From: Naegleria gruberi
Lineage: Eukaryota
DNA: 64,000 nt
Assembly (NCBI GenBank): GCA_000004985.1
Contig: GG738870.1
Direction: 5' to 3' (one strand)
How positions within the stretch are numbered: the first letter of the stretch is position 1; every line of letters begins with the position of its first letter. The notes beneath the pieces were generated by a model, which saw only the letters and a list, made by a program, of their open reading frames with translations, ran no database searches and was not told the origin of the DNA. The translations under genes and the position numbers were made by a program. Shown one piece after another: positions 928 through 50,113 of this stretch.

Positions 928-2395
928 TGTGTGAGAATGTCAATTTTGTTTGATTTGGATTGTTGAAGGCTTTTTTTTGTGTTTGTTTATCAGCCTCAAT
1001 ACTACAGCTCTATTTTTCCAACAAGCCTTCCTGGTGATTTAAATCGACCAATTCCAAAGGCTTGTTTCGTCATGTTTCGAAATGAAACGCTATTGCAACA
1101 ACATCTTCACATAAACTGATGGTTGTTGATAGTCGAGATTAACACTAGCAATATGCAATCTCGCATCTCTGTAGCATTTCAATTTTTCTTTCAGGTATCT
1201 TTGGATATAAAAGGAGAAGGTAAGTGCCCAATACAATGATTGGATGCAACTACAGAACGTTCATCGTTTTATAATTACCAATCGGAGATGTTGACAATGA
1301 CACGAATTTTATTGGGAATATTTCAGAATTGGAAGCTGAAATTAAAATTATAAGGTATGGAGAATAAGTGAGCAGACAATTAGAGAAATTAGCCGAAATG
1401 TGATATGAACTGGAGATACATTAAGACATCACATCATCTCAACACTGAGATTTTTCAATAACGTGAACATTTTCGTTAATTAGTTCAGATTCGAATACTG
1501 AATTGTGAAATAATCCATTTGGATTTCATTGCCCAATTGTTATTTGTACACATTTTACCTCAATATATTTAGGCAAGAATATCACCATTTTAAAATATAC
1601 TATCATGAGTGCTTGATCAAATGAAATTGAACTTGTCACTTTATTCTCAACAAGTAAAATTTTCAATTTGTGGGCATAACATCGTCCAGTAACGTAGATG
1701 CACATGAACCTATCATTATATTGAAGTATATGCTTCAAAAATTGAATTCGCCATTGGCTTATCAAATATCAGAACTTGTACAAACTCCCTCTTCTTTCCG
1801 TGCCTCAACCTTAATTCATGATTAGAAAAGCCAACATCAACGATGAGTGTCGCCCTTAACAGTAAAACCTTCAAGCGCCTATGATAAACACATTTGAGTA
1901 GCATATTCAATCATTTATCTTCAAAACGCAAGTCCATTGGCCCATTAGCCATTCAAATATTTAGTTAACGATTCATCAATAAGGACCATACGCTCAATTA
2001 CTGTAAATACCGTATTATCCTGTATTCACGCATATCTCTAGAACTAGTCATCAACACAAAGGCGGGAAGCCAGGATGTCTCCCCGAACAATCTCAAGAGC
2101 AAACAAGATGCTACCGATTGGGATGAAATGTGTTGAAAAGATGCACCTCTTGCACTACAAAGACAAAAAGTTAGAAAATGCGCGTTCATCCAACAAGCAA
2201 TCATGTAAGTGGTGTTTTCTTATTTATTTTTATTTAATATGTTGATGATAACTGTAGTATAAGGTAAAGACTCAATCGATTGATCAAGAAGCAAATAAAG
2301 CAAATCAAGAAGCGGAAGAAGATGAAGGTCAATTGCTATTTGAGAGAAAAACAAGAAAATATGATGGTTGTTGTTCCTTTAGAGGATTTACAATC

Positions 2396-4631
2396 ATGCT
2401 AATTGTCTTGTTGTTGTTGGTATGCTCGATATCTATTTGGCTAGCTTCATATATTGGCTCTGCAAATGCTCTCAATGAATTGTCCAGTACCATTGTGGAT
2501 AAGGTTGCTGAGAGAGTTTTGGCATTCTTGACAAGTAGTATTCATCCATTTTCAGGATTATCCAGAACTATTGCTTTTGATTTTAATAGTGGTTATGTTA
2601 TGAGAGATCCCAATTCTATATTGCCTTACTTTTTCAAGAGAAGTTTAGTTTATTCACCTTCTTCCATTGGATTCCACTTTTACAATGAGGCTTATAGTTA
2701 TTTCAATATTACTTACTTTTATAGTGGTGTTCCAGTTCAATCTTTTACAACTTATCATCAACCATTCAATTATCCAGGTTTGGTTCACTATTTGGCTAGT
2801 CCAATTAATGGAAGTATTATTGGATTGATTGCTAATCAGACAACTCCTTTCAAACAATATACTCAGAGTTATTGGATTAGTAGTGAGAAATATTTTGCCA
2901 AGTTTAATACTGATAGTATATATGGAGATCCTTATACTGTGGTCAATTCGAGTACTTGCATTTTTTATGCAAGTAAGCTGTATAATCCAGTTGAGTTTGC
3001 AGTGAATGGAACCAAATCTGCACTTATTGGATTGGCAAAAATTAACATTTCCTTATTAAGTATTCAAAACTTTTTGAAAACAATTACCATGATTGGAGAT
3101 GGCTATGTATTGGTTTCAGAACTGAATGATTTGGTGATTGGCGGAAGTATCAATACGACTGCTTTGAATTTCTACTCAAGGGTGTCAATGTTCCAGCTCA
3201 TAGATAGAGATTCAGGAACTTTAATGTCAGAGCTGGCTCAGAAATATGGAAATTTATCAAGCGTTCCAAATACTGGAGCCATTCATTTTGCAAGCAAAGG
3301 AGTTGACTACTTTATTTCAAGAAGATCATTCTATTTGGAGAATATTTCATGGAATGTCTTTTTGATTGTATACAAGTCAGATGTAGAAAAGGTCAGTAAC
3401 ATAAATACTGCCATATCAGTTGGTGTTTGTGTTGGGGTGATTTTACTTGGTCTGGTCATGAGTGCTCTGTTAGGTCACTGGATTACAAAACCACTCAGAT
3501 ATTTAGAGAGACAATTCAATCAGATCAAGACATTTAGTTTGGAGAATGTTGAATTCAGATCGAGTTCTTTCGGTGAAATGAATAGAATTTACAAGCACTT
3601 ATACGAAATGGTGTTATTCTTAAATGAATTCAAACCCTACCTTCCAGCCAGTTTGTTCAATCAAATCAGAGAGAAAACTCAAGAAACTCCAAAAGAAGTT
3701 GAACAGTCAAATAGTAATATGGCTCAATCCATGGCAATGACTGAGAAAAGTTCAGCTTTGAGAAGTTCAATTTCAAACGATTCTTCCAAGCATGAACGAA
3801 AGGGTACTATTAATGAGCTCTTCAGAAAGGGACTATTCAAAAAGAAGGTGAGTGTAATCATGATTGAGATTTGTAAAGATTCCAATCATGATTATTCAGA
3901 TATTGAAAATCAATTCTCCAAAGTCATCACATTGATTAGTTCCATCACCAAGAAGGTTCATGCTGATTTGCAAGTATTGAGTGTGCACACCTTCCAATTG
4001 TCATTCTCTGATAACAACTCATCCAATAACAGACGCCACAATCTATTGGCCATTGAGTGTGGTCTCAAAATTGGTCGACTCTTGACCAGTATCAATGTGC
4101 AGTATTATATGGCATTATCTGGAGGTGAAGTCTTGGCTGGAAACTTGGGAACTAAAGCTCTGAGATATTATGGTATTGTTGGACCAGTAATGGCCAATGT
4201 TCAGCATGTTTTGCAGGTAGCCAAATCGTTGAAGTGTGAAATTCTCTCAGATGCATTCTCTCTTCATGAACATAGTGCCAAGACAAGGATTGTTGCTAGA
4301 CCAGTTTCGAAAGAAGAACTTTCTCATGGTGTTGAGACTATTTATCAAGTCCTTAAAGAGAATATTGTGGAACAAGATGGTAAGTATTATTTTTCAAAAT
4401 ATTATAGTTTAAATGTGAAAAATAGAATGGCTCTATGAATTGGAACAAGAAAAAGTCAATGCCAAATATAAAAAGTTTGAGCATGCATTCTCGATATTTG
4501 ACATGACTCCAAATACTGACGATTATTTCAAACAGTTAGAAGAATCGAGGGAAATATTCAATGAGTATAAGGAAAGTGATCCATCAGATTTGGTAACAAT
4601 TAGATTGCTTTCCTTATTGGAAAATATGTAA
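2396..4631 (+). CDS. Receptor-type class III nucleotidyl cyclase-like protein. It has a signal/TM segment, an N-glycosylation-rich ectodomain of about 350 aa, one TM helix, and a cyclase homology domain with substituted metal-binding residues. Exon 1 is 2396..4379, the intron is about 4380..4425 (alternative acceptor at 4407 gives immediate stop), and exon 2 is 4426..4631.
   Basis: First in-frame ATG is at residue 22 of the ORF starting at 2333 (MLIVLLLLVCSISIW). The TM helix VGVCVGVILLGLVMSALLGHWI follows the ectodomain. The cyclase-like motifs are KIGRLLTS...LSGGEVLAGNLGTKALRYYGIVGPVMANV, and VSVIMIEICKDS aligns to the F-D-I-x-G-F-T position with D->E. GTAAGT lies at 4380 and an ...AATAG acceptor at 4425 is in frame with ORF 4440..4631. 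Confidence 0.5.
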
Positions 4632-4659: not shown

Positions 4660-6147
4660 TTACTGTTGGTCATAGTCAGTAAATTTGTTAAATGGAAGCA
4701 TGATTTGTTGATAGAATAGCATCCAATTCTTTCTCCAATTACGTTGTATTTTTGGTTGGTAGGTATACTTTTCTGGATTGAAATGCTCAACTGAGGCCAT
4801 GTTAAAAGTAATCATGTAGAGTTGAACGCCACTCATGAAACCAACAAAGGCTAAAACCAATCCAGCAATTCCCAAATTGATGACATTCAACACAATAAAT
4901 AAAAATGTGTGGAATTGCATGATTGGATTATTGCTGTGCACGAATTGAAGCATTTGTTGAGTTTTTCCATCAGTGTACAATTCTTCAATTCTCTTTCCGT
5001 GGAGGGATGATATTCTCTTCATGGATTCATACTGAAATGCATAATCAAAGAGTTGATTCACCTCACAATAAGTCAAGTAGAACAAGCAAATTACCATAAT
5101 AAAGCATAAAGACATTTGAACTACCATACTCAAAAGGAATGCCAAAAATGTCAATTGATTCTTTTCTCCAACACAATTAGAAATCCACAGACAGTGATGG
5201 TCATACTTTGCAGCTCTATGTCCACATCTGGTACAAAATTTGGATCTTGTTGGAAATTCCACAACTTTGGTTTCTTCCTTCTTGGTAGCATTTGCTGTGA
5301 TAGCAGTGGCCGAGTCACTTGATTCATTCTCTTGCTTTTCATTTTCCAAATTCTTTTCACCACTCTTTCTATTTCTCAAAGTGGTTGTTGATGTCTGTTG
5401 TTCCTGTACCTTTTCACTATTGATTGCTTTTTGTTCTTCCTTTCTCTCAAATGTAATACTATCCTTATGTGAAATGTAACCCAAATGTTTTTCATCACCT
5501 TCCACAAAAATTCTTCCAGGATTTGACCTCTTACTCATCTCATAGGTAATATAACTCAAAATCCAACCAATATAATACAAGTAAAAACTCCAGTGAGCTC
5601 CCAATAAATTAAGTTTATCCCAATCCTGTGTGGAATAAGTAGTTTGCAACTCTAACAAGGGATATTTCATATTGGGAGCCTTTTCAGAATCGACAAATAA
5701 ACCAAAAATGTCAATCCAATAATAAGAAACAATGAAAGGAATAACTCCCATATACAAAAATCCAAACAAAATTAAATAATAAACACCAGCCTCCAATTTT
5801 CTATTATAGTGCATATTCTTTTCCTTTCTCTTTAATTTCTTCAATGCCAATTCTTCTTCCGAAAGTGTTGGTGGTGATGTTGCTACAATAGTCTTCTTTG
5901 TATTATTACAATTACACTTGTCATCATGTTGATGATGATGATCATGTAATTTACCACCACTTGATGTTCCTTCCGAGGAAGATGACGATGCTGATGATTT
6001 TGTATTCTCCTCTTCTTCTTCATCTTCATTACAACATTCATAACAAGGACACCATCTATACCGACACAGACACAAATTACATCCCAAACTACACGCCACA
6101 TCACAGGATTTATCCCACACCAATAGACACAAATCTTCGGAACACAT
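4660..6147 (-). CDS. zDHHC-type protein S-acyltransferase (palmitoyltransferase). Single exon.
   Basis: Contains CTRCGHRAAKYDHHCLWISNCVGEKN, a canonical Cys-rich DHHC zinc-finger with the DHHC tetrad. Multiple predicted TM helices flank it. ATG is at 6145-6147 on the minus strand. Confidence 0.8.
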   Translation of the reverse strand: MCSEDLCLLVWDKSCDVACSLGCNLCLCRYRWCPCYECCNEDEEEEENTKSSASSSSSEGTSSGGKLHDHHHQHDDKCNCNNTKKTIVATSPPTLSEEELALKKLKRKEKNMHYNRKLEAGVYYLILFGFLYMGVIPFIVSYYWIDIFGLFVDSEKAPNMKYPLLELQTTYSTQDWDKLNLLGAHWSFYLYYIGWILSYITYEMSKRSNPGRIFVEGDEKHLGYISHKDSITFERKEEQKAINSEKVQEQQTSTTTLRNRKSGEKNLENEKQENESSDSATAITANATKKEETKVVEFPTRSKFCTRCGHRAAKYDHHCLWISNCVGEKNQLTFLAFLLSMVVQMSLCFIMVICLFYLTYCEVNQLFDYAFQYESMKRISSLHGKRIEELYTDGKTQQMLQFVHSNNPIMQFHTFLFIVLNVINLGIAGLVLAFVGFMSGVQLYMITFNMASVEHFNPEKYTYQPKIQRNWRKNWMLFYQQIMLPFNKFTDYDQQ

Positions 6148-6651
6148 TTTTTTCTTTTAGATATTGAAAAGATGACGAGTTGGAAGATGATGAGGGAACT
6201 TGATGATTTGGAAAGATTATTGTTCATGAAATGTTTTAGTCTTTCTCATTTAATAAGAATATTTAAAATGTTATATTGTAAAGTATTTAATCTTAAGATA
6301 CACGAAAAAAGAATAAATAAGGGCCTATCGTTTTGAATATTCAATCCTTCCTCACACCCCAGGCAATTCGCTCTTAAAAACGCCGATTGAAATAATTGCG
6401 GAGTTGATTCAACCTTAAATAATACTAATAACCACTTAATAATATTGATTGGTTTTCTTGCATTATAATTGGTCCCAACCCAACCACGCAAAATACTCTC
6501 CTATATTGATGATATTGAATGCTCATCATTCATGCATTAGGCAATGCTCAAGTTCAAATGTGGGACATCAACTATATTATTGGTCCTTAACCGGTTACCA
6601 CCGCGTAAATTAACAAATTTTTTGTTGAAAAAAATTGCGTTATTAAGGAGG

Positions 6652-7873
6652 ATGAAGATTTGTACTGTTGCCTTGATCGCAACCTTGATGGTTGTTTTTG
6701 CTGTTGCTGCTAATGCTCAACAAAATTTTAATAGATTGCCAAGACTTAATGTTAGAAAGCAAAGCTTTACTGTGTCTGGTATTTCTTCTGGAGCTTTCAT
6801 GGCCCAACAATTTGCTGTTGCTTTCTCAAAGACTGTTACCGGAACTGGTGTTGTTGCTGGTGGTCCATATTATGTAAGTTTTTAAATGAATGGATTCGGA
6901 ATATTAATAATAATTGATATAAAGTGTTCTCTTGGTAACGAATTCGTTGCTCTCGACAGCTGTATGAAGATTCCACAAATGATTGATTTGGTAGGTTTAA
7001 AGATTTTAAAAAACTAATATGAACATTATAATGATACTAAATTGATATTATTCCACCAAAATTAACACATGAAATATTTCCACATATATCATTAATAGTC
7101 AATCATTCAAGACATGATTAAGGAAATGGAATCAACTGGTGCTATCGATCATTCAAGCAATGTTAAGAACCACAAGTTCTACCTCTTCTCTGGTACTGAT
7201 GATTTCATTGTTTTCCAAGGTGTTATGAGAAAGCTCCAACAACAATTGTACACCACTTTCCAAGTCCCAATTTCTAACATTGTTACTGACTTTAAGACTC
7301 CTGCTGTTCACGGTTTCATCACCAATGATTATGGTAATGCTTGTGCTATGTTTGGTAGTCCATTCATTAACAATTGTGGTTTGGATCAAGCTAAGATTAT
7401 CCTTGAAACTGTCCTTTCTACCAAGTTGAATGCTTCTCAACCTATTGATAGAAACCTTTTCACTTTCTCTCAATCTGGTAACTACACTGCTACCAGCTTT
7501 GATGAAAAGGGTTACATTTACATTCCAACTTCTTGTCAAGCTAATCGTGCTCCATGTGTTGTTCACTTGGCTTTCCACGGTTGCAACCAAGGTGTTCAAA
7601 GCGTTGGTGATGTTTTCGTCAAGCATTCTGGTTACCTCAAGTATGCTGAAAGCAATAATATTGTTGTTGTTTTCCCTCAAGTCAGAAAGACTGAATCATT
7701 CTTGGTCAACCCAGAAGGTTAGTAATTATTTAACTTTTCAATTATTTAATTTCAATAATATAGGTTGTTTCGATTGGTGGGGATTCAGTGGTCAAAACTT
7801 TGCCACTAAACAAGGTCCACAAATGAAGGCTATTGCTAACATGCTTCTCGATCTCGGTGTTGATGTTCAATAA
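6652..7873 (+). CDS. Secreted esterase of the PHB-depolymerase/feruloyl-esterase (Esterase_PHB) family. Four exons: 6652..6873, 6925..6990, 7099..7717 and 7764..7873.
   Basis: Signal peptide MKICTVALIATLMVVFAVAANA. The GxSxG nucleophile elbow is VSGISSGAF. Family motifs VVHLAFHGCNQG and NPEG-GCFDWWGF are only reconstituted after splicing the 46-nt intron 7718..7763. The 66-nt middle exon is CSLGNEFVALDSCMKIPQMIDL. Donor sites are GTAAGT, GTAGGT and GTTAGT. Confidence 0.75.
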
Positions 7874-7901: not shown

Positions 7902-10900
7902 TTATTGTTGTGTTGTTTGATTATTTGGTTCAAATGACATTGAAAGTTCAATAAGCTTGTCCTCATTAAAGTGAACCATATTAATTAGTTTTGATTTGAG
8001 TTCTGTCACATTCTTCAAGTCATATTCTTTTTGATATCTCTTGATACCACCTTGAATGACAAAGGCAAGTTTTTGTCTCTTGAAAAAGTTGATAATTCCC
8101 TTCTCCTCATTAATATAGTCCTTGTTACCGTCTTCAATGAATGTCAAATCAGTGAGGTAGAGTCCAATGAATGGAATGAGTGGAGGTGTACATTCCTTCA
8201 TGATGGTTCTCATCTCTTTGTAATTCTTGAGTGTGGAAACTACCTTTTCCAATTCCTTATATTCTTCCATGTGTTTCTTTGGAACTTGAGACCACGCTTT
8301 TTTGAGTCTTGCGATAGGAGCACTTCTCAAGCCACCAACAATTTCTTTCAGTCCATTGAAATTGTTGAGCCTTCTCAATTCTCGTGCAATCTTGATGAAT
8401 TTACGAATGGCCTTCACTCTCTTTTCTTCCTTCTTATTGTCGAGAATGGTGTGAGCGACCCACAAGACAACTGTATTGGTTCTTTGAATCATTTCACATA
8501 TATTTGGTGCACCAATCTTGTTCTTGTTCCATGCTTGTCCTAGACATTCTTTAGGTTGAATTTTTTGGAAACTGTTAAATGTTAAATAACTATTAGATGT
8601 GAAAAAATTGAAAACTTACATTGCACTTTCTAGCAGAGTTATTTGACGAGCAATTTCAATACTGCTCCAATCTAGAACCTTAACTTCTACCAAATTTCTG
8701 AAGGATTTCCTAAAAGAGGATGGATAGACTGGTTTTGGAGCATTCGCCTTTTCTTCATCTTCATTTTCATACTCTTTGATTTGTTTTTCTAGGTATTGTT
8801 TTTGGACACTTGCCAAAGTATCTCTCTTAGTTTTAATTCTCTTGAGTTCAGTTCTCAAATTGTCTGCCAATTTTTCAAAAGTCTTGGCCATGTGATTTTC
8901 AATAAAGTTCGACAATAATCTTGTTAATCCTGGATTACTCTTAAAGTCATAGCTATGATCTGAAATCCATCTCTTCAAAATACCATAAATATTAATTCTA
9001 ATTGGTGCCAAGACTGACATTTCAAATTGGGCAAAGAGAGCAGAATTGGATCTTACTTCATTATTAGGTGGAGGCAAGTTCCACTTTAAACTCAACAATT
9101 CTAGGAACTTCTCGGCGCTTGTGAATGAATGATAGGTCAAGAGGAAGGCATCCTTGATGGCCATATCTTGAACACTATTGGAAACTGTCATTCTTTCAAC
9201 AAGCTTTTCAATAGTTGCTCCAATTAGTGATCCATCCTCACCAAAGGCAACATTCACACCAGCAACCTCAACTTCATCGAATTTTGCATGGTCAATAGAT
9301 CTTCTAGCCATAAGAGCATCTAAATCTTCGGCATACCTAGCTTCAGGTCTCTCCAAACTCGAGACTGATCTCAAGTGCTTTACAATTTGTTTGGTTTCTT
9401 GAGCTGAGAGGAGAGAACCAGAGAGAATGGAGCGAATATAGTGAATCCAACGTCTTCTTTCCTCTGGAGTTTCACACTCAAAGCATTTTTGTTTCTCTGG
9501 AGCATAGACCAATTTAAATCCCTTCTCTCCATACTTTTCCACAATGCATGTTGTGTCAATATAGTACAATTTCTTCTCCCTCTTGAAATTATTGTCCTTG
9601 TTGAGCCAACTGATGATTAGAACATTCTCAAAGAGGTATGCTTCACATGGTGGACTCCTTCCATTCTTTTTAACCTTATAAATGAGCTTATCATTGGTAT
9701 CGTAATAGTTTGCCAATGGGGAGGATTCACCTGCTTGAACAGAGTAGACGAATTTAGGCATTCGGGGAACTGCCTCCTCGAGAATTGATTTTCTACGTGG
9801 TCTCTCGATTTTATAGACTGTAGATTCTCTCTCACTAATGGAAACTCTCATTGAAGAACCCAAATTATATTCCAAATCAAAAGCTGTATACCTTTCCAGG
9901 TTTTCAATGTTCAATCTGTTTTGAATTTCCAAAGTCTTATTGAGCTGATAAGCCATTTCTAATATATCACTATTGGTTATCATTTTCTTTTCCAATTTAT
10001 AGATTGCTGTTTCCAATTTGAGACATGGATGATCTTCTGGAATGAGAGGATGGAAAACATCACGGAATTGAACTAAATAGTATGTCAAACGTATAGTTGG
10101 TTGTTGAATAATTTGTTCAAAGGTTAAAATATCAGTAATGAGCTTGTCTTTCTTTTGAGATTCCCTTGAAGCAACATCCAACTTGTCCTCAATCAGTGTC
10201 TTTAATTGCTTATCAGAATCTAACAGAATTTTTTGAATTCTATAACGAAGACCTTTCTTTGTATATTCAACCAAATACTGATCGATATATTTGGTGATCA
10301 ATGTGTCTTGAACAAACTCCAAAATGATATCACCAAAATCATCTAACCACTGATCATTGGCCTCAGAGACAGTTTGTTCAGCCAAGTGTCTCTTCAATTG
10401 CATCAATCTCAAATGCTTCCTATCAGCACTAAATGAATTAATCAACATGTTAAATAACTTTTCTATAATTTGAACCTCTCCATCATCGTTATTTCTCTTA
10501 CTAATCACTTCCATAATTTGATTCTTATAAAAACTTGGTAAAATATATCCCAAATGACTCAAATATTCCTCCTCTCTCTGAATAAATCTCTTCAGACACA
10601 AACTTAATTGTTTCTTTGGAATTTGAGGTTTTGGTTTGTTAGGTTTTGATGGAGAATCAAAAACCAACTCCTCCACTGGTGATGCTTCTCTATATTTAAC
10701 CATAATTCTTTGTTGAGCCTTACTTTTCACATTTTTCAATGATGAAATTCTTGGTAATTGTTGAGCTGATGCATTTTCGAATTGTTTAATTCTTTCATTG
10801 ACACTGACTAGATCAAAAGCTCCCAAAATTCTTCTTGCAAAACTCAAATCTTGTTCTTGTTCCTCTCTTTCACTAATGTCTTGTTCTTGATTGGTTTCGT

Positions 10901-11246
10901 TTTCTTGTTGAAGAGTTTCATTCTTTAAATCTTGAAGGGATTGTTGTTGCTTGTTGTTTGGAGGTTTTAATTGATTGGCAGTGATTTGCTTTGAAGCAGT
11001 TGATGTTGATTGTTGTTGATTATTAGAAACTTGAGAATTATCCGAAACATCCTTGATAGAAGAATTTAAACTTGTTGAAGTTTCTTTTTGTTGTTCTTGA
11101 TATAAATCATGAGAAACTACAATTCCTAAAGCAATTTGCAAATGTTCGGGAAGAGTATCGAATTCTTCATTCTTTACAATTTCAAAGGATGAAAGTGGTC
11201 CTGTTGTTACATTTTGAATAGCACTTGTGGACTCTAATAGTCTCAT
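7902..11246 (-). CDS. Ras guanine-nucleotide exchange factor with a RasGEF N-terminal domain and CDC25-type catalytic domain. Two exons, 8620..11246 and 7902..8571, separated by a 48-nt intron at 8572..8619.
   Basis: Catalytic-domain motifs IARQITLLESA | IFQKIQPKECLGQAWNKNK become contiguous only after removing the intron (GTAAGTTTTC...TTTAACAG). The domain continues with VLWVAHTIL...LNNFNGLKEIVGGL...IPFIGLYLTDLTFIEDGN. The N-terminus is Q/N/S-rich. Confidence 0.8.
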
Positions 11247-50032: not shown

Positions 50033-50113
50033 GCAGGGGTTCCCGAGTGGTCAAAGGGGGTAGACTCAAGTTCTACTGCGCAAGCTTCGTGGGTTCAAAT
50101 CCCACCTTCTGCA
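50033..50113 (+). tRNA. tRNA-Leu (anticodon CAA), a class II tRNA with a long variable arm.
   Basis: GCAGGGG acceptor stem pairs with CTTCTGC. D-arm TTCCCGAGTGGTCAAAGGG. Anticodon stem GTAGA/TCTAC with loop CTCAAGT. T-arm GTGGGTTCAAATCCCAC. T-rich tract downstream. Confidence 0.85.

Follow-up and report, generated by a model that had tools for sequence, protein, structure and literature searches.

A predicted non-catalytic cyclase-homology receptor of bacterial design in Naegleria gruberi

In class III nucleotidyl cyclases, the active site lies at the dimer interface: one subunit gives two aspartates and an arginine for the phosphates, and the other gives a lysine, an aspartate or threonine, an asparagine and an arginine. 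The substrate-specifying pair is Lys plus Asp/Thr for ATP and Glu plus Cys for GTP. Among the receptor-type cyclases of protists, GRESAG4/ESAG4 of Trypanosoma brucei (1fx4) and ACG of Dictyostelium are active enzymes, and GRESAG4 crosses the membrane once. Here, we describe a gene on the plus strand of a 64,000-nucleotide stretch of Naegleria gruberi contig GG738870.1 (assembly GCA_000004985.1; the whole stretch is called the window), whose product has an ectodomain of a different type, a double-Cache (dCache) sensor, together with two transmembrane segments (TMs), a HAMP domain and a dead cyclase homology domain (CHD). On the basis of its sequence and that of its relatives, we consider it probable that the protein is a ligand-sensing, non-catalytic pseudo-cyclase transmembrane receptor of bacterial design.

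The nearest characterised analogue appears to be T. brucei RDK1 (repressor of differentiation kinase 1), in which an N-terminal domain resembling bacterial sensors (TlpQ/dCache-like) is combined with a TM, a cytoplasmic adenylyl/guanylyl-cyclase-like fold and a kinase (PMC8519429). For RDK1, kinase activity but no adenylyl cyclase activity was detected, and cAMP was unchanged upon its knock-down (bioRxiv 10.64898/2026.05.05.722970, a 2026 preprint). Both proteins have a Discoba host, a bacterial-type sensor, a TM and an inactive or predicted inactive cyclase-like domain. However, the C-terminal STE-like kinase is the active output of RDK1, whereas the Naegleria protein ends after a helical tail; having no C-terminal kinase domain, it does not belong to the RDK1 type. 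In mammalian transmembrane adenylyl cyclases (tmAC, C1/C2) and in soluble guanylyl cyclase (alpha/beta), complementary half-sites form one active site, whereas the Naegleria protein has neither half. Two non-catalytic CHD-like proteins of bacteria, from Pseudomonas aeruginosa (6yii, 'Class III adenylyl cyclase-like ATP-binding protein') and Acinetobacter baumannii (7sua), are soluble regulators of another architecture, as judged by their PDB titles, and are structurally far more distant from the Naegleria CHD than true cyclases are.

Cyclase homology and the catalytic positions

The query alone gave no cyclase, Cache or HAMP match at E<=10 in a Pfam hmmscan, whether unspliced or spliced, and phmmer against PDB sequences returned only noise (tektin, E about 0.1). 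Because the query by itself went undetected by Pfam and phmmer, a family profile was needed to establish homology. Six of 11 close paralogs matched PF00211 weakly (best 4.5e-4). A profile of 11 close relatives (A2) matched CyaB (E=1.4e-6) and sAC (2.6e-6) in the PDB, and a profile of 80 members (A4) matched CyaB over the entire domain at 7e-21, as well as Cya2/CyaC, OaPAC, sAC, bPAC, RhGC and Rv1625c. Against 5.8e9 proteins, A4 retrieved bacterial PF00211 cyclases with E down to 2e-22. This similarity and a beta-alpha-beta-beta-alpha-beta fold place the domain among the class III CHDs, as an earlier reading made from the sequence alone (the sequence-only reading) had proposed for the region after the ectodomain. 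A word-indexed search with the CHD-only profile A2 added just 2 new proteins; the index misses most of the divergent family.

To set the register of the catalytic residues, 36 bona fide bacterial cyclases were aligned to the family profile. The six catalytic columns read D-K-D-T-N-R in 31 of these controls, which shows that the register is correct; the other 5 differ at one or two positions. In the same columns, the query reads E491-V527-H531-G593-A600-H604, with codons verified (residues are numbered throughout on a 729-amino-acid scale in which the methionine at position 2396 is residue 1):

3866-3868 (+): E491, column of the first metal-binding Asp (beta1, FxDIxGFT in competent cyclases), in VSVIMIEICKDS
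3974-3976 (+): V527, column of the purine-specifying Lys
3986-3988 (+): H531, column of the second metal-binding Asp (beta2-3, the IGD Asp), in LSVHTF
4172-4174 (+): G593, column of the purine-specifying Asp/Thr
4193-4195 (+): A600, column of the transition-state Asn, in GPVMANVQH
4205-4207 (+): H604, column of the transition-state Arg, in GPVMANVQH

None of the three functional pairs is kept. Where 35 of the 36 controls have D at the metal positions, the query has E491 and H531; V527 and G593 stand where the controls have K (or Q) and T/S/A, and A600 and H604 where they have N (or H) and R. The sequence-only reading correctly saw a glutamate at the first metal-binding position, and our alignment gave no register that brings canonical residues into line, the outcome by which a check of the PF00211 columns was to have exposed a shifted motif. 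The second metal-binding Asp it had looked for in the GDxVN motif, whose Asp we rejected as a metal ligand: the second ligand is the IGD Asp, replaced by H531. The motif reported as GPVMANV is indeed altered, with GPVMANVQH in place of GDxVNxAxR, but what is lost there is the transition-state Asn and Arg rather than a metal ligand. Thus, both metal-binding aspartates are gone as claimed, and the loss extends beyond these two positions to all six, including V527, G593, A600 and H604.

Other features of the fold are retained: G582-N583-x-G585, R590 (4163-4165), G596 and R635-P636. Position 590 lines up with the conserved Arg of the bacterial 'GS..R..YT..GD' motif, which we take to be the triphosphate-contacting Arg (compare R484 of tmAC C1). 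Since both metal-binding aspartates, the purine pair and the transition-state Asn and Arg are missing, a homodimer of this protein is predicted to be unable to make cAMP or cGMP. A subunit that carries neither half-set would form no homodimer site and would abolish the sites of any heterodimer, and for this reason a pseudo-enzyme receptor is the best supported reading.

Gene model and membrane architecture

The window is AT-rich eukaryotic DNA with a GC content of about 0.34, and the product of the open reading frame (ORF) is 98% identical to the N. gruberi 'predicted protein' P0001. The gene is intact, has two introns and ends at 4631. The long ORF runs from 2333 to 4438, and its continuation lies at 4426-4631, past a 46-nucleotide (nt) intron. 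The best model that we can infer, 2178-2204 + 2258-4379 + 4426-4631, would encode 784 amino acids (aa):

2178-2204 (+): exon 1, MRVHPTSNH, with the likely true start codon
2205-2257 (+): intron 1, 53 nt, GTAAGT...CTGTAG, signals read from the sequence
2258-4379 (+): exon 2, encoding the N-terminal tail, TM1, dCache, TM2, HAMP, transducer helix, linker and CHD-like domain
4380-4425 (+): intron 2, 46 nt, GTAAGT...AATAG, phase 1
4426-4631 (+): exon 3, encoding the EW.YE motif and a helical tail, with a TAA stop (4629-4631)

The sequence-only reading had started the protein at the ATG at 2396, a start that we no longer support. Upstream of it the frame is open as far as 2258, and the upstream segment (basic residues, 'GCCSFR', TM1) is conserved in paralogs. 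The ATG at 2178 is the sole start with canonical splice signals that joins this upstream ORF in frame (donor GTAAGT at 2205, acceptor TAG at 2255-2257), and the resulting N-terminus, 'MRVHPTS', is similar to the 'M..KVVPTS' of paralogs. Exon 2 can be aligned end to end with Naegleria paralogs. Intron 2 is taken to be real because joining 4379 to 4426 (...EQD/EWLYELEQ...) restores the family-invariant D-E-W-x-Y-E. The public model of P0001 (707 aa) goes wrong at 2075-2461 and 4376-4438: it uses the same intron 1 donor and splices 2204 to about 2446, which deletes TM1, and it reads through intron 2 to a false stop. The public models of P0006, P0010 and P0012 likewise retain, or stop in, an intron at the intron 2 position. 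It appears that this position, just before EW.YE, is conserved and systematically mis-modelled. Naegleria proteins of this kind carry the UniProt label 'guanylate cyclase domain-containing'. The closest paralog, P0002 (N. gruberi, 1272 aa), carries a fucosyltransferase annotation (PF00852) and looks like two merged genes, a GT10 fucosyltransferase and a family member without TM1.

The order of elements in the product is TM1, dCache_1, TM2, HAMP, a cyclase-transducer-like helix, a Ser-rich disordered linker, the CHD, EW.YE and a short helical tail:

2396-2461 (+): TM1, residues 1-22, hydrophobic stretch MLIVLLLLVCSISIWLASYIGS, conserved in paralogs
2468-3400 (+): ectodomain, predicted extracellular double-Cache domain (dCache_1) with 9 N-glycosylation sequons
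3410-3481 (+): TM2, residues 339-362, hydrophobic stretch AISVGVCVGVILLGLVMSALLGHW
3482-3631 (+): HAMP, residues 363-412, with the family-conserved P366 and E394
3632-3679 (+): transducer-like helix, KPYLPASLFNQIREKT / KPYLPASLFNQI, with P417 at nt 3644-3646
3680-3811 (+): Ser-rich linker, residues 429-472, between the transducer helix and CHD strand beta1
3812-4375 (+): degenerate class III CHD, residues 473-660

A first AlphaFold2 (AF2) model, made from an 11-sequence alignment, was poor in the CHD (predicted local distance difference test score, pLDDT, <50 at 579-668), and a fold search with it matched dCache only; it was replaced by an 80-sequence model. TM1 is helical in both models, and TM2 lies within a continuous helix (327-378) of the 80-sequence model. 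The sequence-only reading had assumed a single TM, and we rejected such a receptor: two TMs were found (1-22 and 339-362), with about 55 cytoplasmic residues before TM1 (40-130 in paralogs) and with HAMP and the transducer-like helix between TM2 and the CHD. Ahead of TM1 stand basic residues and CCSFR, a conserved motif. This motif, C(C/F)S(M/I/F)R (GCCSFR at 2366-2380), lies cytoplasmic to TM1 and could serve as a palmitoylation site. The gene that converges on this one, at 4660-6147 (-), encodes a DHHC palmitoyltransferase (PF01529, E=1e-17), with 29 nt from stop to stop; the adjacency of the two genes is probably coincidental.

A double PAS-like/Cache fold, a long N-terminal helix and two flanking TMs identify the ectodomain as dCache_1 (PF02743). 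It holds 9 N-x-S/T sites, compared with 4.1 +/- 1.8 in shuffled sequences (p about 0.01), which bears out the earlier impression that it is rich in N-glycosylation motifs; in the cytoplasmic part, 3 are found where 3.5 would be expected. Among the sequons, several are conserved; N253 occurs in 11/11. The enrichment fits an ectodomain that would be extracellular or lumenal.

HAMP domains are two-helix modules of about 50 residues with a conserved Pro in AS1 and Glu in AS2. Pfam made no direct HAMP call in the query or its paralogs, and the domain (PF00672) is identified through the family profile, with P366 and E394 kept in 80-85% of members. From TM1 to the end of HAMP, this profile is collinear with residues 6-405 of the bacterial protein P0165, and it is also collinear with residues 2-356 of P0195, a methyl-accepting chemotaxis protein of Bacillus. 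The Pfam HAMP domains of these proteins (354-404 in P0165 and 305-355 in P0195) both fall in the query segment 3482-3631, and an Acrasis member carries the UniProt name 'HAMP domain-containing'. The likeness to single-TM protist receptor cyclases that the sequence-only reading had drawn thus gives way to another: the sensor aligns collinearly with TM-dCache-TM-HAMP receptors of bacteria, and the CHD and tail are class IIIb-like.

Downstream of HAMP, P417 is invariant among 80 aligned members and present in 92% of 155. We take the helix that bears it to be a candidate cyclase-transducer element, from its likeness to LLxxxLPxxVAxxL. The linker that follows has a pLDDT of <50 for residues 430-470 in both models, and its length (about 45-100 aa) and sequence vary in paralogs. 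It sits where active cyclases have only a short link; phospho-regulation or uncoupling are possible roles. EW.YE and the tail span residues 661-729, with helices at 663-687, 694-712 and 717-728 at pLDDT >90.

The family and the competing explanations

An exhaustive profile search over 1.84 billion representatives gave 3957 matches at E<=1e-3, 646 at E<=1e-10 and 69 at E<=1e-30. The weaker matches probably include true bacterial cyclases, and our claims are therefore restricted to the top 150. We define the family by the FLP (P417) helix, GNxG...[RK]...G, R-P, D-E-W-x-Y-E after the CHD and the absence of a complete catalytic set. Its 154 representatives are clusters at 50% identity. The full set (D..D plus N..R) occurs in 0/154, and the top 150 are all degenerate. 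At the catalytic columns, the family is hypervariable: most members have K/R/N/T/H/Q at metal site 1, and the residues at the Asn and Arg positions are scattered.

These data bear on the possibility, raised in the sequence-only reading, that the protein is a divergent enzyme, that is, an active nucleotidyl cyclase or other nucleotidyl transferase working with unconventional residues, in which E491 and H531, for instance, would ligate the metal. Because the six columns are hypervariable, there is no conserved alternative catalytic constellation, and the conserved positions lie elsewhere. Neither base-recognition residue is present in the query, nor is the transition-state Asn or Arg, and RDK1, of related architecture, has no adenylyl cyclase activity (bioRxiv 10.64898/2026.05.05.722970). 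We regard a divergent enzyme as highly improbable.

A second explanation is that the dead CHD acts as a dominant-negative or regulatory heterodimer partner of Naegleria's competent cyclases. A partner with neither half would silence both sites, and the dCache ligand would tune cAMP/cGMP output indirectly. The conserved CHD fold and beta4-beta5 region (GNxG, R/K590, G596) are consistent with such a role, and Naegleria species are reported to have at least 81 cyclases (PMC9928731). Moreover, half-sites persist in a few members, as in heterodimeric cyclases: both Asp in 5 of the 154 and Asn plus Arg in 1, all of them outside the query's subfamily. These members (P0087, P0109, P0147, P0155, P0157 and P0006) could be heterodimer-type subunits or relics of an active ancestor. 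However, the query itself carries neither half-site, the full set is absent from all 154, and the family-specific EW.YE and tail suggest an output of their own. No paralog or other CHD was found within the 64-kb window, and hence no co-located cyclase gene. We hold a heterodimer role to be unlikely: of the dimerisation partner put forward in the sequence-only reading, a complementing subunit does not stand, and only a dominant-negative one is conceivable.

What the family conserves lies outside the catalytic columns. Strongly conserved are P366, E394, P417, 'LFKLGL' before beta1, G582-N583-x-G585, R/K590, G596, R635-P636 and D661-E662-W663-x-Y665-E666. Position 590 is R/K in 146/151 and the GNxG Asn is present in 133/150; W663 never varies, and the conservation of E662 and Y665 is 88% or higher. 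The query has the whole family signature (P417, G582-N583-L-G585, R590, G596, R635-P636 and D661-E662-W663-L-Y665-E666) and keeps 11 of the 11 positions conserved at >=80% and 29 of the 35 conserved at >=60%.

Selection was estimated by the Nei-Gojobori method for P0005/P0007, an N. fowleri / N. lovaniensis orthologue pair that is a paralog of the query, with coding sequences (CDS) from loci L001 and L002. The ratio of nonsynonymous to synonymous rates (dN/dS) was 0.12 in the CHD-like domain, 0.075 in dCache, 0.13 in HAMP plus the transducer helix, 0.10 in the C-terminal tail and 0.56 in the linker. These ratios are rough because dS is about 0.6-1.5, near saturation; even so, the contrast between CHD and linker is clear. 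The CHD-like domain is under purifying selection in this Naegleria pair.

Together, these results speak to a third explanation, that the gene is a recently inactivated cyclase copy on its way to becoming a pseudogene. The query departs from consensus at moderately conserved positions (W408F, G573A, S593G, D/E531H), lacks the last 50-110 residues of its paralogs, and is only 46% identical to its nearest relative, as a decaying copy might be. On the other side, the 784-codon CDS is intact with two canonical introns, the conserved positions are kept to the extent given above, catalysis was lost in the ancestor of the whole family and not recently, and the orthologues of the paralog have a dN/dS of about 0.1. 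Decay is, in our estimate, the least probable of the explanations weighed here. An outright pseudogene was rejected, given the intact CDS and the conserved positions kept.

A pseudo-cyclase that acts as a sensor, the remaining proposal of the sequence-only reading, is thus the one we favor with reasonable confidence, given the loss of six residues, the dCache-HAMP module and the family-wide loss. In this receptor, the N-glycosylated extracellular dCache_1 domain would bind a small ligand, and the signal would pass through TM2, HAMP and the cyclase-transducer-like helix to the CHD. The class III (IIIb-like) CHD keeps its fold and beta4-beta5 region, with GNxG and a basic residue at the phosphate-Arg column. 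The dead CHD, the invariant EW.YE and the helical tail may then form a ligand-controlled dimeric module, conformational or scaffolding, whose output would be a protein-protein interaction. Binding of a nucleotide or other phosphate-bearing ligand may have been retained, and phosphorylation of the Ser-rich linker may modulate signaling.

Several observations weigh against this receptor model. Metal binding by E491 and H531 is possible in principle. In dCache domains that sense amino acids, the Arg of the R-x-W-Y motif binds the carboxylate and an Asp serves the amino group. At the R-x-W-Y Cache motif, judged by eye, the query reads 'TQSYW', with Gln for Arg; the family profile 'krdWy' lines up with bacterial 'RaWY', and most Naegleria paralogs are without the Arg. 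The amino-acid-sensor motif of dCache domains thus appears not to be kept in the query. The 45-residue insert, disordered in the models, argues against canonical rigid coupling of HAMP to the CHD. The tail of the query is about 50-110 aa shorter than that of most paralogs. Finally, the selection estimates, with dS near 1, come from the orthologues of a paralog and not from the query gene itself, for which the sequences analysed contain no close orthologue.

Origin, implications and neighboring features

Bacterial class IIIb cyclases with sensors include CyaB of P. aeruginosa (3r5g), CyaC of Spirulina (1wc1), Cya2 of Synechocystis (2w01) GAF-PAS-cyclases such as P0167, and the dCache-bearing Rv2435c of Mycobacterium tuberculosis (PMC4822843). 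Unlike them, the Naegleria protein has all six catalytic residues replaced, its family has a disordered 45-100-residue insert before beta1 and an invariant D-E-W-x-Y-E that the bacterial proteins lack, and its gene has a eukaryotic host, introns and glycosylation sequons in the ectodomain. An origin from bacterial class IIIb is indicated by GN[ILF]G, by the Thr/Ser found at the base column and by the structures and sequences that match best (CyaB, Cya2/CyaC, GAF-cyclases). In a Magnetococcales GAF-cyclase, the profile match extends past the Pfam CHD (507-681) into the C-terminal helical tail (to 749), with DEWxYE as an insertion relative to that protein. With a profile of the tail alone, 19 bacterial cyclases scored 12-18 bits at the expected place, and no reversed control scored. 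These weak matches are no more than suggestive of homology between the query tail and the tail that follows the CHD in bacterial GAF-cyclases. Upadhyay et al. drew attention to a Naegleria 'bacterial-type adenylate cyclase' with a Cache domain and put eukaryotic Cache domains down to horizontal transfer (PMC4822843). Most likely, the family goes back to a bacterial dCache-HAMP-class IIIb cyclase taken up early in Discoba, with loss of catalysis followed by expansion.

All members with a named taxon are Discoba; several others are metagenome or transcriptome entries. The Heterolobosea are represented by N. gruberi, N. fowleri, N. lovaniensis, Willaertia magna and Acrasis kona, and the Euglenozoa by the euglenids Entosiphon and Chasmostoma, the diplonemids Namystynia and Lacrimia, and the prokinetoplastid Papus. 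Long members carry extra ankyrin, PA, LamG-like and dCache domains. The members scanned contained no enzymatic output domain, and the top 150 representatives retrieved had no kinase motif (HRDxKxxN). Pseudo-cyclase domains as such are known; what appears to be undescribed is a receptor family that is large, conserved and spread across Discoba, is devoid of every catalytic residue and carries a signature of its own, as our literature search found no description of this family or of its degeneracy.

We tentatively suggest, as a possibility that we hold with some doubt, that the family is an old class of ligand-gated receptors found throughout Discoba. In it, a bacterial dCache-HAMP-cyclase would have become a non-enzymatic signaling module (dead CHD dimer, invariant EW.YE and helical tail) before Heterolobosea and Euglenozoa diverged, with an output of its own and with RDK1 as a kinase-bearing offshoot. 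If so, a sizeable share of the 'cyclases' counted in Naegleria genomes would not be cyclases, and the class would be an uncharacterised type of eukaryotic receptor. Naegleria genomes have been described with about 80-100 or more adenylyl/guanylyl cyclases, which was read as heavy environmental sensing through cAMP/cGMP (PMC9928731). Clustered at 50% identity, the subfamily without a full catalytic set amounts to at least about 150 clusters, with representatives in Heterolobosea, euglenids, diplonemids and a prokinetoplastid, and cyclase counts and the inferences on cyclic-nucleotide signaling in these protists need correction. The signature FLP, GNxG-[RK], RP and DEWxYE would mark a non-enzymatic receptor output that is now open to experiment, and the family gives an evolutionary setting in which to view RDK1, whose inactive cyclase-like domain is puzzling. 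Members in the pathogen N. fowleri are predicted surface-exposed sensors with bacterial-type ligand-binding domains. To our knowledge, such sensors have no human counterpart beyond the alpha2-delta subunits of calcium channels.

Three further features of the window lie downstream of the receptor gene and its palmitoyltransferase neighbor. At 6544-7873 (+), overlapping ORF pieces (e.g., 6544-6885 and 7114-7722) have the look of a secreted esterase; a Pfam scan of the 7114-7722 piece gave no match. A RasGEF gene occupies 7902-11246 (-) as two ORF pieces, one (8616-11246) with RasGEF_N and the other (7902-8492) with the catalytic RasGEF domain, presumably split by an intron. Only one tRNA gene was found in the window, a tRNA-Leu (CAA) at 50033-50113 (+).

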